A stretch of DNA of 14,107 nt from Candidatus Odinarchaeota archaeon. GTDB taxonomy: Archaea; Asgardarchaeota; Odinarchaeia; Odinarchaeales; Odinarchaeaceae. Positions 9,164 through 13,830 of the stretch are shown here, in pieces (positions within the stretch are counted from its first letter, which is position 1; each line of letters starts with the position of its first letter). Position numbers and translations under genes: made by a program. The notes under the pieces were generated by a model. It had not been told where the DNA came from, did no database searches, and saw nothing but the letters and a program-made list of their open reading frames with translations. The DNA lies in the NCBI GenBank assembly GCA_038826135.1, contig JAWBON010000002.1, positions 30,268-44,374 of the forward strand. Reading direction: 5' to 3'.

Positions 9164-9221
9164 TGTTTATTTAGGCTTATGACCAAATTAGATTATAATC
9201 AATAATTATTAGGTGTGCGCC

Positions 9222-10904
9222 ATGTCTGTGTCAAAGTATGTTTTTAAAATAATACTTGTGGGTGACGGGAGGGTTGGTAAAACATCTCTACTCTTACGGT
9301 TTACAGAGAACAAGTTTAGGGCTGAATACAAGAAAACTTTAGGGACAGATTTCGCTGTTAAAAACGTGAAGGTTAACGGCGAGGAGGTTAAACTTCAAAT
9401 ATGGGATTTAGGAGGTCAAGAACTGTTCCGTGATCTTCGTAAAGCATTTTATCCAGGCGCTAAAGCAGCTCTGATCGTCTATGATGTTACTAACAGGCGG
9501 TCTTTTGAAAGCGTTCCCGCCTGGCACGCGGATATAGTTTCAGCTCTTAAAAAAATACCTATAATCGTTGTCGGTAACAAGATTGATTTACCGAGAGACG
9601 TCTCATATCAAGATGCGAAGAGTTTATGTGACCGCCTTTCAGTGGAATATATTGAAACAAGCGCTAAACTAGATCAGAATGTTGCAGACGCTTTTCTAAA
9701 AATAGCTTCAAACGCCGTGATCTCAGCGAAAGGTCTTTCACAGAAAGCAGCACCCCCTGAACCTGTTGTCAAGATACCTGCAATAGTTGAAAAACCTATT
9801 TTAACCACACCTAAAATATTCGAATCACCTAAACATGTTTCAAGCGGTGTGAATAGTTTCTATGAATGGTTTGATAGAAACAACGATTATCTTAACTCTA
9901 TAGCAGAGGATTTGCTTACACTGGATATCTCTAAGGAAAAAGAGCTAATCCCGAATATGGAAGGTGAACTTTTTAAGTTAATAGGGGCTCACGGAATTAA
10001 CTCGTCATTGGAAGCTAATAATACTTGTCTGAGACTATACTCCGATTCTAAAAATCCAGTGTTAAGTATAATACTTGATTTAAATCTTAACAGCATCGAT
10101 TATTTTAAAAAATGTTTAATCAGCTTACTGTTAGCCGCCGTGGCTTTAAAAAAATATAATATAAATAGTAACGTGAATTTCTACATAGTATTCGGGGATT
10201 ATTCAAAAGAGGATGAAGATTATAAGGAGTATTTCAGAGAGGTTGCGAAAAAATCAGATTATACAATAATGATTGTTGAAAGAGAATTTGACTCAATAGG
10301 GATAATACCGAAAAAAACACTCTCATACACTGTAAGTTTCCAAGGGGATAAAAGCTACAGCAGCCCATATATCTTAAATAACGCTCTTTTAAAATATGTA
10401 GCCAAACTTTTTAAACAGGTTGAAGAACCGTTAGAAAAAGTCAATTTATCGAATTCGAAAATTAATATAACGTCAATAAACGGTTTCAACACTGAAACAT
10501 CATCATCCTCTATAGGTCTTGATTTTTCAGTAAACTATGCTGAAAACACTGAAAAGATTAAGCAAATGTTAAACGATGTTAAGCAAACTCTTGTCGAGGA
10601 TGGAAACCTGAAGATTGTAATAGAGGAAAATACGGATAAACTTTCACCTATGATAACTCATGAAGCGCCTTTACTACTTGTTTTAAGAGATATTATTTAC
10701 TATAATCTAGAGAGAATTGTTAGAATAACATACGAGGAGCCTTACGGTAGTATCGCAAATCTCTCCTCACTACCTAAACCCTTCGTTCTATTAGGTTTCA
10801 CTAAAATACCGCTTACTAATATTAAAACACAGGTTTTTAATGATATTATAATCCCGGCTAAAATCATCTCAGGCACTTTGATTGATTTAACAGGTAGTGG
10901 GTAA
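9222..10904 (+). CDS. Rab-like small GTPase fused via a Pro-rich linker to a degenerate M20 peptidase-like domain
   Basis: G1 GDGRVGKTS, G2 YKKTLGTDF, G3 WDLGGQE, G4 NKID, G5 ETSAK in about 9222-9722; linker 9723-9848; C-terminal ~350 aa follows the ArgE/DapE element order by manual alignment. Start ATG 9222 (GGTGT SD 5 nt upstream); ORF track uses GTG 9213. GTPase call is very secure, M20-like call about 0.65. Confidence 0.9.
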   Translation: MSVSKYVFKIILVGDGRVGKTSLLLRFTENKFRAEYKKTLGTDFAVKNVKVNGEEVKLQIWDLGGQELFRDLRKAFYPGAKAALIVYDVTNRRSFESVPAWHADIVSALKKIPIIVVGNKIDLPRDVSYQDAKSLCDRLSVEYIETSAKLDQNVADAFLKIASNAVISAKGLSQKAAPPEPVVKIPAIVEKPILTTPKIFESPKHVSSGVNSFYEWFDRNNDYLNSIAEDLLTLDISKEKELIPNMEGELFKLIGAHGINSSLEANNTCLRLYSDSKNPVLSIILDLNLNSIDYFKKCLISLLLAAVALKKYNINSNVNFYIVFGDYSKEDEDYKEYFREVAKKSDYTIMIVEREFDSIGIIPKKTLSYTVSFQGDKSYSSPYILNNALLKYVAKLFKQVEEPLEKVNLSNSKINITSINGFNTETSSSSIGLDFSVNYAENTEKIKQMLNDVKQTLVEDGNLKIVIEENTDKLSPMITHEAPLLLVLRDIIYYNLERIVRITYEEPYGSIANLSSLPKPFVLLGFTKIPLTNIKTQVFNDIIIPAKIISGTLIDLTGSG

Positions 10905-10923
10905 ACTTATTCATGTGATAGTT

Positions 10924-12519
10924 ATGGAAACTATAACCCCAGCTAAGATGAGAGAGTTAGAGCTTAACAGCGCATATATTGGTTTAAACCCTCTAATATT
11001 AATGGAGAACGCTGGCAGAGGTGCTTACGAAGAGATTAAAAAAAGATACAACCCGGATAATCATAAATTCATCGTATTCTGCGGGACTGGTAATAACGGT
11101 GGAGACGGATTCGTCATCTCCCGTCAACTGTCCTCTCATAACATAGTTGACGTGGTTCTTTTAGGTCACCCTGATAAAATATCACGGCCAGAAGCTAAAA
11201 TAAACTGGGATATTATTGAACGATTATATCAGAGAATTAGAACTCACATAGTGCTGTTCAAAGAAGATTTAAATAAAATAACACAGCTGGTTAAAGAAGC
11301 TGATGTGATAATAGACGCTATTTTAGGGACGGGTATAAAAGGCTCTCTCAGGGAACCTTTGAAAACCGCTATAAGAATGATAAATGAGTCTGAGGCTAAA
11401 AAAATATCAATAGACATCCCCTCAGGTATGGATCCGGAGTCGGGTGAAACAGCAGGTATTTCAGTGAAACCGGATTTAACTATAACATTTCACAAGGCGA
11501 AAAAAGGATTTATCGGTAATGAAAAAGTTTTAGGGGAGCTTGTAATAACGCCGATAAGTATACCTGCAGAGGTTGAACAGGTAATAGGTCCAGGTGACGT
11601 TATAACAGTTTTGAAGAAAAAAAATATTGAAAGCCGCAAAGGGGATTTCGGTAAACTGCTAGTGATCGGTGGAAGCGATAAATACCATGGTGCTCCAATA
11701 TTCTCTGCAATGGCTGCTATAAGAGCGGGGGTGGATCTTGTAATAATAGTCGCACCGGAAGCTATAGCAAATACAATTAGATCTTATACACCTAATTTTA
11801 TCGTTAGAGGATATCCGGGTAAATATTTAACAGCCGAGTCGTTGAAACACTTCCCTGATCTAATAAACTGGGCTGACGCCGTGGTTTTAGGGCCGGGTCT
11901 AGGGGTTGAAGCTGAAACTAAAGAAGCTGTTAGTAAACTATTCAAATTAATAAAGGATGCTAATAAACCCTTAGTCGTCGACGCTGACGCGATCAAAGTT
12001 TTAGCTGAAAACCACGCTATCCTAGCCGGTTCACCTACAGTTACAACACCTCATAGAGGAGAGTTTAAGCTGTTAACAGGTATAGAGATTAAAGACAGCG
12101 TAGACATAGTGAATATGATAGAGAAAATATTATCTAAGATCAGTGAATTTAATATAACGTTCATAGTAAAAGGGGCTGTTGATTTAGTGGCTAATAAAGA
12201 TTCTTTCAAACTCGATCTTTTAGGTAACCCGGGTATGACTGTCGGCGGAATCGGGGATGTCTTAACCGGTGTACTGGGCTGCTTACTATCCCAAGGTGTG
12301 AAGCCCTTCCAAGCAGCGTGTGCAGCTATATTTATAACAGGCCTTTCAGGCAATCTTATAGCTGGTAAGAAAGGCTATCATTTCACAGCCTCTGAAATGA
12401 TAGAGTACATACCTTCAGCTATAGAGGAAGTATTATCTTTTGAAAACAGTTTAAACATTACACCACCGGATAAAAAGATTTATGAGGCTCTTAAGTTTAG
12501 AAAAACTGAAATACTTTAA
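10924..12519 (+). CDS. nnr: Bifunctional NAD(P)H-hydrate epimerase/dehydratase (NnrE-NnrD fusion, YjeF)
   Basis: LMENAG, GTGNNGGDG, IDAILGTG, SIDIPSG (epimerase); KGDFGKLLVIGGS, GPGLG, VVDADA, TPHRGEF, GNPGMTVGGIGDVLTG (dehydratase). ATG 10924 has a GTGA SD 5 nt upstream; ORF track uses GTG 10897. Confidence 0.95.
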   Translation: METITPAKMRELELNSAYIGLNPLILMENAGRGAYEEIKKRYNPDNHKFIVFCGTGNNGGDGFVISRQLSSHNIVDVVLLGHPDKISRPEAKINWDIIERLYQRIRTHIVLFKEDLNKITQLVKEADVIIDAILGTGIKGSLREPLKTAIRMINESEAKKISIDIPSGMDPESGETAGISVKPDLTITFHKAKKGFIGNEKVLGELVITPISIPAEVEQVIGPGDVITVLKKKNIESRKGDFGKLLVIGGSDKYHGAPIFSAMAAIRAGVDLVIIVAPEAIANTIRSYTPNFIVRGYPGKYLTAESLKHFPDLINWADAVVLGPGLGVEAETKEAVSKLFKLIKDANKPLVVDADAIKVLAENHAILAGSPTVTTPHRGEFKLLTGIEIKDSVDIVNMIEKILSKISEFNITFIVKGAVDLVANKDSFKLDLLGNPGMTVGGIGDVLTGVLGCLLSQGVKPFQAACAAIFITGLSGNLIAGKKGYHFTASEMIEYIPSAIEEVLSFENSLNITPPDKKIYEALKFRKTEIL

Positions 12520-12570
12520 TATTTATTTAGTAGAATAAAGTAATATTCTATAAAAACAAGCGTGATGGGG

Positions 12571-13431
12571 ATGCAATTATTCGATGTGAATGATAACGGT
12601 GATCTTACCGAGATAAGCGATAGCCTCACTATAAGAGAGCATCTTAAAAGCGGCTCGGTTTTCATCATAGTCGACGATGATAAAAAGAAAATATGGATAT
12701 GGAAAGGCACTGAGGCGCCTGTACGGAAGAAATTTATAAGCGCTAGAGCCGCATCACAACTACGAGAGGAGCGTGGATTAAATTACAAGGTCTATAGTGA
12801 GGATGAAGGTGAAGAATCTGATAGTTTTCTTAAGTCTATAGGGGAGACTCCTAAACATGTTGAAGCTAAAAAACCCCCTGTAACAGAGAAGAAAACTGTT
12901 GAAAAAACGCACGCGGTTTCCAAACCGGTTGGTGAGGAGCTTAAAAGAAGTGTGGAAAGCACGCTCATAGAAAAAGAAGTAAAGGAAACAGTTGAGCCAC
13001 GACACACCCCTGTTGTTAAAAATGTAACAGAATCAGCTGAAACCACGTCTATACTTGAAAAACTTGAAACAGTTCCATTACCTAGGGGGTTTGAAAGAGA
13101 GCTTGTTATAGTCGGTAACAATATTTACACTGTTTCTGAGCATACAGTTCACTTCCTAGGTCAAAAACAGATTAAGAAAAGACTTGAAAAAGCCCCTCTT
13201 GGAACAGTGCCGGAGGGTGTTTTCCTAGCTGAGGATTACACCCCTCGAGTAATAGTGAATAACGGTGCTGTTATGGCTATTGAATTCTTAAAGAAAATGG
13301 AAGCGGTTGAGGTTCCAACAGAGGAGGTTTCATCCATAAGAGACGAGTTAAAATATAATTTAAGCGATTTAGTTGACTTCTTTAAAATCGAAATAAAAGG
13401 CAATGAATCAGATGAGAACGATGAGGGTTGA
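12571..13431 (+). CDS. Single gelsolin-domain protein with charged linker, C-terminal globular domain and acidic tail (Asgard 1DGelX-like architecture)
   Basis: LKSGSVFIIVDDDKKKIWIWKGTEAPVRKKFISARAASQL..KVYSEDEGEESDSFLKSIG fits the gelsolin repeat pattern (L.s..vFilD....iw.W.G.......A...a..l......e.eG.E...F). Then an E/K/T/V/P-rich linker and a beta-rich ~85-aa domain. ATG 12571 has a GTGA SD 5 nt upstream; ORF track uses 12562. Confidence 0.82.
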   Translation: MQLFDVNDNGDLTEISDSLTIREHLKSGSVFIIVDDDKKKIWIWKGTEAPVRKKFISARAASQLREERGLNYKVYSEDEGEESDSFLKSIGETPKHVEAKKPPVTEKKTVEKTHAVSKPVGEELKRSVESTLIEKEVKETVEPRHTPVVKNVTESAETTSILEKLETVPLPRGFERELVIVGNNIYTVSEHTVHFLGQKQIKKRLEKAPLGTVPEGVFLAEDYTPRVIVNNGAVMAIEFLKKMEAVEVPTEEVSSIRDELKYNLSDLVDFFKIEIKGNESDENDEG

Positions 13432-13434
13432 GAA

Positions 13435-13830
13435 ATGGCGGATGGTGTGAGTAAAGAACAGGCTGAAGCTTTAGCTAAGCATTTGAGCGATATCGCTATG
13501 AAATCGGATCTTGAAGCTTTAGCGGTGGTGACAAGAGAGGGTGTTAGATTAGCATTTAAAGTAGTGGGCTCTAAAAAAATTGAGCCGGATTTGATGTCCG
13601 CTATATCCGCTGCTATGCTTCATGTCGGTGAAAGCGCTGTGGAGAAAATGGGGTTGAAAGAGCTTTGGGAGGTTATAATTACAGGGGAAGAGGGTTATAT
13701 AGTTTTATCAGGGGCTGGCAGGCTTGTTTTAATAGGTTCAGGTTCAAGCTTGAAAACATTAACTAATACAGTCTCAGTTTTCAGAACATACTCTAGGAGG
13801 ATAGCGGATCTTTTCCCGTTAAAAGATTGA
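13435..13830 (+). CDS. Roadblock/LC7 (MglB/LAMTOR-like) domain protein
   Basis: 131 aa; ALAVVTREGVRLA, DLMSAISAAMLHVGESAVEKMGLKELWEVIITGEEGYIVLSGAG match the roadblock pattern; 3 nt after the gelsolin stop. Confidence 0.88.
   Translation: MADGVSKEQAEALAKHLSDIAMKSDLEALAVVTREGVRLAFKVVGSKKIEPDLMSAISAAMLHVGESAVEKMGLKELWEVIITGEEGYIVLSGAGRLVLIGSGSSLKTLTNTVSVFRTYSRRIADLFPLKD

Follow-up and report, generated by a model that had tools for sequence, protein, structure and literature searches.

Roadblock/LC7 proteins are known to act together with small GTPases, for example in the MglB-MglA and Ragulator-Rag systems, and actin-driven crawling has now been filmed in Asgard archaea. GelX, a gelsolin-domain protein, belongs to the small number of Asgard actin regulators whose activity has been measured, and its family is near-universal in the phylum. 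The 1DGelX protein of Thor nucleates, severs and bundles actin without calcium (Akil et al., 2020, PMC7444086), and B35_GelX of L. ossiferum, which clusters with Thor 1DGelX, was recovered by co-immunoprecipitation (co-IP) with Lokiactin (bioRxiv 10.1101/2025.11.30.690169; PMC13716822). For the Thor, Loki and Heimdall relatives, binding to actin at the gelsolin/cofilin site is known (PMC7444086, PMC9433394). Published 1DGelX/GelX proteins have been treated as stand-alone proteins, whereas the GelX gene analyzed here has a conserved partner gene, encoding a roadblock/LC7 protein. Both genes lie in a 14,107-nt stretch of DNA (the window) of a Candidatus Odinarchaeota archaeon (contig JAWBON010000002.1, positions 30,268-44,374). 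The locus probably consists of two separate units, one of them a two-gene GelX-roadblock unit in which GelX, acting on actin, would have the roadblock protein as its second subunit. No mention of a roadblock partner of GelX was found in the literature on Asgard gelsolin, roadblock and 1DGelX/GelX proteins; most likely, the protein is a so far undescribed partner of an established actin regulator.

GelX and the roadblock gene are the last two of four co-oriented genes on the + strand (9222-13830), distinguished from the listing of open reading frames (ORFs) and by Pfam searches: (i) a gene for a Ras/Rab-like GTPase fused to an M20-peptidase-like domain (9222..10904; Pfam Ras, 1.1e-53); (ii) nnr, encoding a bifunctional NAD(P)H-hydrate repair enzyme (10924..12519) that carries both domains expected of an Nnr protein (YjeF_N, 3e-45; Carb_kinase, 4e-54); (iii) the gene for the gelsolin-domain protein GelX (12571..13431; PF00626, 24.5 bits); and (iv) a gene for a 131-aa roadblock/LC7 protein (13435..13830; PF03259, 24.5 bits). 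The start codons were set from comparison with orthologues. Orthologues of all four are conserved in the genus (its three other genomes) and in the sister family, so that these are real genes rather than chance frames. The intergenic gaps, read directly from the sequence, are 19, 51 and 3 nt, in agreement with an earlier sequence-only reading of this DNA, which described four tightly packed, co-oriented genes (gaps of 19, about 50 and 3 nt) and took them for a GTPase-roadblock-gelsolin module. The source genome (1.26 Mb, 93% complete) contains a eukaryote-like actin (4.5e-106), at least nine strong Ras-type GTPases and eight roadblock matches. Its close relatives are metagenome-assembled genomes (MAGs) labelled Candidatus Odinarchaeota or Odinarchaeia, together with Ca. 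Odinarchaeum yellowstonii LCB_4.

The conservation of the pair was followed in stretches as long as 19 kb surrounding the GelX orthologue, taken from about 40 relatives and from extra genomes added by family, and all scanned with the proteins of the window. This sample covers 20 Asgard families, denoted by codes (f1, f2 and so on), with f1 and f2 forming the Odin order. GelX and roadblock were found adjacent on the same strand in 9 of the 20 families (f1, f2, f6, f9, f10, f12, f15, f24 and f29), where the distance between them ranges from an overlap to about 240 nt. In f14 they adjoin each other convergently, in f4 they are 6 kb apart, and in f26 and f27 a different, longer roadblock paralogue is located 0.6-0.9 kb from GelX. 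The genes around the pair are far less conserved: a phosphoglucomutase (PGM) gene and the GTPase fusion are its neighbours in f1 and f2 only, and nnr is placed upstream of GelX only in f1, f2, f9 and f29. Independent gene calls, in which Robl_LC7 was present, showed further flanks of the pair, namely SerRS and an HD protein in GCA_048938385.1, PUA/DUF5591 and gyrB on a Logan contig, and a beta-helix protein in a Thorarchaeota-labelled MAG, the latter carrying an orthologous member of the GelX family. MAGs labelled Lokiarchaeia and Heimdallarchaeaceae are without the adjacency. The pair thus persists while both of its flanks change, which is not expected of neutral block synteny at such depth. 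The gelsolin-roadblock pairing put forward from the sequence is therefore conserved far beyond the Odin lineage, and the synteny check across Asgard genomes upheld this gene order but restricted the position of the GTPase to the Odin order.

In the two non-Odin families with nnr (f9 and f29; L040 (G013), L041, L051 and L069 (G157)), this gene is directly or closely upstream of GelX. The order nnr-GelX-roadblock may be old, although nnr encodes a housekeeping repair enzyme.

The Odin roadblock protein scores above the Pfam cut-off (24.5 versus 23 bits for PF03259) and matches the Protein Data Bank (PDB) entries 7f8m and 9jue (1.2e-5 and 1.5e-5; with a profile, 1e-11 and 3e-10). With its C-terminal helix it falls among the longer roadblock proteins, and the solved structures closest to it in sequence are of Asgard-type roadblocks. 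In a maximum likelihood tree of 58 homologues from the compared Asgard genomes, 23 of the 25 roadblock proteins with a gene beside GelX or in its vicinity (22 adjacent, one at a distance of 6 kb) fall into one clade with 99/99 support. The same clade holds a subclade of four sequences encoded next to SRP54 (98/96) and four others; the remaining roadblock paralogues of these genomes are placed outside it. Genomes in which GelX and roadblock are unlinked still carry a high-scoring roadblock elsewhere. Since SRX, a roadblock/longin-like domain, binds the SRP receptor GTPase in eukaryotes, the SRP54-adjacent location may be worth noting.

A second roadblock gene of the source genome (G000:C26:5270-5632; L098:1216-1908) encodes a 231-aa protein related to the GelX-linked one. 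It is conserved in the genus and the sister family and lies outside the GelX-linked clade. Its C-terminal extension of about 100 aa had no Pfam match, and the extensions of the longer roadblock paralogues (196-321 aa) were likewise without a Pfam domain.

The two proteins are also missing together. Five genomes (completeness 73-90%) of three families without domain X, the C-terminal module of GelX (f32, f17 and f31), were examined, and domain X was found in none of the five, profile search included. Their best roadblock matches are at the level of paralogues only (E 1e-13 to 3e-6), as compared with 1e-27 or better in 15 other genomes. Actin is kept in all five (about 1e-110), and therefore neither general sequence divergence nor loss of the actin system explains the double absence. 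As the families are related and the genomes incomplete, the joint absence amounts to at most three events, not five.

Modelling of the GelX-roadblock complex gave a score of 0.50 (individual runs 0.51, 0.43 and 0.50), compared with 0.00 for the best of three controls; at least 79% of the contacts agreed between runs, and the pLDDT of the partner was at least 82. In this procedure, 58 of 80 solved complexes came up to the pass mark, as did 2 of 110 mismatched pairs. Scores of 0.60 or lower account for seven of the solved complexes that passed and for both of the mismatched pairs, and these counts are only a rough guide here because custom alignments of both partners were used. A pass in this band is more often wrong than right unless the pair is likely beforehand, and binding of GelX to roadblock is likely beforehand because of the synteny and the phyletic pattern. 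The prediction thus lends the binding weak support, and the modelling suggested from the sequence yielded a separation from the controls without returning an interface.

In its architecture (gelsolin domain, linker and X), the Odin gelsolin protein belongs to the Asgard 1DGelX/GelX family, which is distributed across Asgard lineages. The gelsolin-homology domain (aa 1-95; 12571..12855, + strand) is modelled by AlphaFold2 (AF2) with pLDDT above 90; PF00626 covers aa 26-90 (24.5 bits versus a cut-off of 21), and the domain shows PDB sequence matches to Asgard 2DGel and ProGel (7whg, 4e-8; 7whf, 7c2h and 7c2f; range 4e-8 to 2e-6). It is followed by a disordered linker of about 55 residues rich in Lys, Glu, Pro and Thr (aa 96-150; 12856..13020, +; AF2 pLDDT below 50), for which no conservation was seen in the alignment and whose length and sequence differ between lineages. 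Domain X (13021..13428, +) is predicted by AF2 to comprise a helix, a five-stranded antiparallel sheet of long strands (aa about 156-242, pLDDT about 90) and a conserved C-terminal helix (aa 256-271) modelled with lower confidence. Four of its residues (R176, G216, R226 and E238) are invariant. The overall architecture was established from the AF2 models and an alignment of 36 members. In published descriptions X is called a coiled-coil or a domain of unknown fold, which differs from this model. A profile search of PDB sequences gave no match to domain X, the best Foldseek E-value against PDB was 0.11, and in a wide VIA-align search the best Z was 3.7, with scattered PAS, GAF, Cache and LC7-like entries at noise level. 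These model-based comparisons thus returned no fold match, from which we do not claim a novel fold. A relationship of domain X to roadblock proteins was also considered, and hhalign against the roadblock profile gave nothing.

Of 400 genomes of the phylum, 356 contain domain X (88 of the 90 high-quality ones), and its shape was found in the ESM Atlas in Asgard clusters only. In the five genomes inspected in detail, every match to the domain stands behind an N-terminal gelsolin domain. There are up to six GelX-like paralogues per genome, and only the main orthologue has a roadblock neighbour.

Several variants of the module were observed. Loki-type genomes (G145, G150 and G173; L131-L134, L137 and L147) have up to six gelsolin+X paralogues with short linkers, none of them with a roadblock neighbour. 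This set includes proteins with two tandem X domains, as well as a stand-alone X-domain ORF (90-96 aa) directly after a Gel-X gene. A domain X-like shape (TM 0.60) occurs in an Asgard cluster of 52 members, proteins of about 387 aa with Rho_N/SAP/HeH motifs, and the module may also be attached to such nucleic-acid-binding heads.

By analogy with LC7 and LAMTOR dimers, which bind helices, domain X and the C-terminal helix of GelX are the candidate contact sites for roadblock. A roadblock dimer would most likely bind one of them, and once bound, it might render the complex bivalent, or tether or gate the action of GelX on actin filaments. The analysis shows the identities of the genes, the conservation of the pair, its joint absence and the lineage-restricted position of the GTPase; we infer the binding itself, its stoichiometry and any effect on actin.

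The arrangement of the four genes fits two transcription units, [GTPase-M20 + nnr] and [GelX + roadblock], with read-through from nnr possible. There is no room for promoters in the gaps of 19 and 3 nt because they are so short, and nnr is probably co-transcribed with the GTPase gene. The AT-rich spacer between nnr and GelX (12520..12570, +) is a candidate promoter region, and the GelX-roadblock unit probably has its own promoter there, as the sequence-only reading had suspected; the sequence agrees with that suggestion, and the promoter keeps the standing of a candidate. A TATA-like element, TTTAATAT/TTTATTTAG, lies before GelX (12515-12530, +), with the copy of TTTATTTAG at 12522-12530, 41 nt before the ATG, and is followed by an SD-like GTGAT (12562-12566, +). 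The GTPase gene is preceded by a TATA-like TTTATTTAG (9166..9174, +; 48 nt upstream of the ATG) and an SD-like AGGTG (9211-9215, +), so that each of these two larger gaps has an SD-like GGTG or GTGAT about 5-7 nt before the ATG. These two copies of the 9-mer TTTATTTAG, which precede GTPase and GelX on the + strand, are its only ones in the 14-kb window. Two or more copies anywhere in the window appeared in 29 of 200 shuffles, and the 9-mer, spotted after the fact, gives a weak hint of a shared TATA element. The spacer is AT-rich in the four genomes of the genus, which also share the GTGAT block. A promoter and terminator scan, of a bacterial type ill-suited to archaea, detected none above shuffled controls. 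Positions 12437-12587, covering the end of nnr and the beginning of GelX, are matched by one 151-nt contig from two runs labelled metatranscriptomic that are probably DNA, and this contig can neither separate RNA from DNA nor demonstrate a transcript.

Within the second unit, an SD-like GAGGGT (13423..13428, +) forms the last codons of GelX, directly in front of its stop codon TGA (13429-13431, +) and 7 nt upstream of the ATG of roadblock. From the 3-nt gap, translation of roadblock is probably coupled to that of GelX. The PGM gene is convergent and overlaps the 3' end of the roadblock gene, and therefore nothing downstream can belong to the unit. At the other side, the GTPase gene is preceded by ACT-domain and homoserine dehydrogenase genes (Pfam).

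The GTPase domain of the fusion protein spans aa 1 to about 170 (Pfam Ras over aa 12-167), and the rest of the protein is a C-terminal extension, about 390 aa long. The motifs G1-G5 are all present (GDGRVGKT, TLGTDF, DLGGQ, GNKID and ETSAK) and conserved in eight orthologues, in keeping with the Ras/Rab pattern of GxxxxGKT, a switch-I Thr, DxxGQ, NKxD and SAK. The protein ends without a Cys motif for C-terminal prenylation such as eukaryotic Rabs have. The extension of the Odin protein gave no Pfam match of its own; the corresponding parts of the sister-family fusions match Peptidase_M20 (6e-20 and 2.5e-18) and M20_dimer, and all protein-atlas features of the extension point to M20 families. 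The fusions of f7 and f19 have intact M20 metal and catalytic motifs, with HLDV, GRGxVDxKG and ADEE all found. In f2 these motifs have been lost in part, and in the Odin genus they are missing or deleted. Measured against the residues expected of an M20 peptidase (PF01546; HxD, a bridging Asp, EE and a C-terminal His), the Odin fusion is a member of the fold family only and not an active metallopeptidase.

The Ras-M20 fusion is a family of its own, present in at least four of the coded families (f1, f2, f7 and f19) with GTPase motifs intact throughout. The fusions of f7 and f19 (L123:4192-5970, L124:4239-5999, L125:4063-5895 and L126:2910-4718) are 587-611 aa long. Two other GTPase genes were noted in the compared genomes. 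In the sister family f2 (L034:7125-7979, L035:4735-5589 and L036:4473-5327), a distant 285-aa GTPase-like gene with the motifs GFGGVGKT, DFAG and NKQD is located divergently upstream of GTPase-M20, where the Odin genus has the ACT and homoserine dehydrogenase genes. In the closed genome G029 (L057:9457-10799), a 228-aa gelsolin-family gene is convergent, at about 120 nt, to a gene for a 180-aa Ras-like GTPase, a neighbourhood that differs from that of the Odin GelX and roadblock.

The sequence-only reading had joined all four genes into one cluster, with roadblock as the GTPase-activating protein (GAP), guanine nucleotide exchange factor (GEF) or scaffold of the Rab-like fusion and GelX as the actin output. 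It had rated the coupling of gelsolin and roadblock as strong and the tie to the GTPase as weaker, a ranking that the comparison sharpens. The co-orientation and tight packing of the genes in both families of the Odin order, the intact GTPase motifs and the known partnership of roadblock proteins with small GTPases would all suit such a module, which we nevertheless consider very improbable, as the fusion adjoins the pair in f1 and f2 only. In f7 and f19 none of nnr, GelX and roadblock was found within about 4-5 kb of the fusion, and the closed genome G040 has the fusion at 1.41 Mb, the nearest roadblock at 1.92 Mb and GelX at 2.37 Mb (0.45-0.5 Mb apart). Thirteen loci of the pair from outside the Odin order were without any ORF with G1, G3 and G4 motifs at a distance of up to 6 kb. 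At the locus itself, a housekeeping gene and a likely promoter gap separate GTPase from GelX. Asgard GTPases are, moreover, generally not in operons with roadblock genes (Tran et al., 2024, PMC10933270). The GTPase is therefore a lineage-specific neighbour, and the proposed link, with its GAP/GEF or scaffold role, drew no genomic support; the fusion and nnr would form a second unit, upstream of the pair in the Odin order only and outside the module. Roadblock might also be an MglB- or LAMTOR-like platform that links GelX to a small GTPase encoded elsewhere, so that severing would be switched by GTP. Such a role fits the conserved pair and the joint absence equally well, and is in keeping with the length and C-terminal helix of the roadblock protein and its Asgard-type solved relatives. 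Asgard genomes also hold many orphan small GTPases, at least nine strong Ras-type ones here, and an Arf GTPase co-purified with Lokiactin (PMC13716822). We still regard such a platform as unlikely, in that no GTPase recurs near the pair, no candidate emerged, and roadblock folds also serve as plain dimerization or helix-binding modules, as in dynein LC7.

The pairing might instead reflect co-regulation or inherited synteny without direct interaction, with roadblock working elsewhere, for example with SRP54. The unlinked families, the subclade beside SRP54 and the weak complex prediction lean this way, and they count, along with several further observations, against a GelX-roadblock subunit relationship. 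The two genes are not adjacent in f5, f7, f8, f13, f16, f19 and f22, leaving about half of the sampled families unlinked; in f7 and f19, which have GelX, the nearest roadblock falls just outside the orthogroup clade; and in f5, f13, f26 and f27 (L072, L073, L084 and L085) the orthologue of the 98/96 subclade adjoins SRP54 divergently. The predicted complex, lacking a returned interface, scored in a band where passes are often wrong. The families are related, so losses and retentions are not independent events, and the transcription units are predicted from the sequence. No fused GelX-roadblock protein was found among roadblocks in longer chains and the GelX family at 148-566 aa, a weak negative result; a 389-aa member of the GelX family is without a roadblock domain. 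Thor 1DGelX is active on actin alone in vitro (PMC7444086), and roadblock is therefore not required for core activity. The main text of the L. ossiferum Lokiactin co-IP report lists gelsolins, profilin and an Arf GTPase and no roadblock (PMC13716822). Mere synteny remains a clearly unlikely account in our judgement, given an adjacency that outlasts changes on both sides, neighbours that are much less conserved than the pair, and a joint absence despite retained actin. We thus favour a GelX-roadblock unit in which roadblock is a subunit of GelX.

If the partnership holds, a likely role is assigned to one of the many orphan families of Asgard roadblock proteins, and a conserved partner gene that is lost along with GelX provides a concrete test case for the control of this regulator. 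A bolder version, in which GelX-roadblock was an ancient two-subunit actin regulator of the last common Asgard ancestor, with roadblock docking a GTPase encoded elsewhere and severing switched by GTP, has in our estimate a small chance of being correct; if true, it would represent a prokaryotic forerunner of eukaryotic GTPase-to-actin signalling. Since the Rab-like GTPase is a lineage-specific neighbour, the present locus is no evidence for a GTPase-to-actin pathway, and the GTPase is best taken out of the proposed module unless biochemical results show that it belongs there.

Compared with the described systems, the locus resembles MglA-MglB of Myxococcus and Thermus in its small, MglB-length roadblock with a C-terminal helix and in its tight two-gene unit. 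The conserved partner is, however, a gelsolin-X protein and not an MglA-type GTPase, and the nearby GTPase is Rab/Ras-like, M20-fused and confined to one order; the arrangement of MglB-type proteins, a roadblock beside a cognate MglA-type GTPase across lineages, was not found in any of the 13 non-Odin loci. With Ragulator (LAMTOR)-Rag, the likeness is the roadblock fold as a scaffold in a eukaryote-like regulatory context. The Odin unit has a single roadblock gene rather than heterodimer pairs, the C-terminal part of the GTPase is M20-like and not roadblock, and the GTPase matches Gtr1_RagA at 3.3e-5 versus 1.1e-53 for Ras, which sets it apart from Rag-like proteins. The eukaryotic Rho-family control of gelsolin and cofilin shares with the sequence-only reading the conceptual layout of switch, adaptor and actin severing, but the eukaryotic gelsolins have at least three gelsolin domains and are controlled by calcium and PIP2, and for the pair described here no conserved genomic tie with a GTPase was detected. 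In dynein, an LC7 roadblock dimer is a clamp for the helix of the intermediate chain, and, purely by analogy, roadblock might hold the C-terminal helix of GelX in this way. Helix clamping has also been proposed for Odin-RBLC7 (PMC10933270), a protein without the C-terminal helix that the GelX-linked roadblock possesses.

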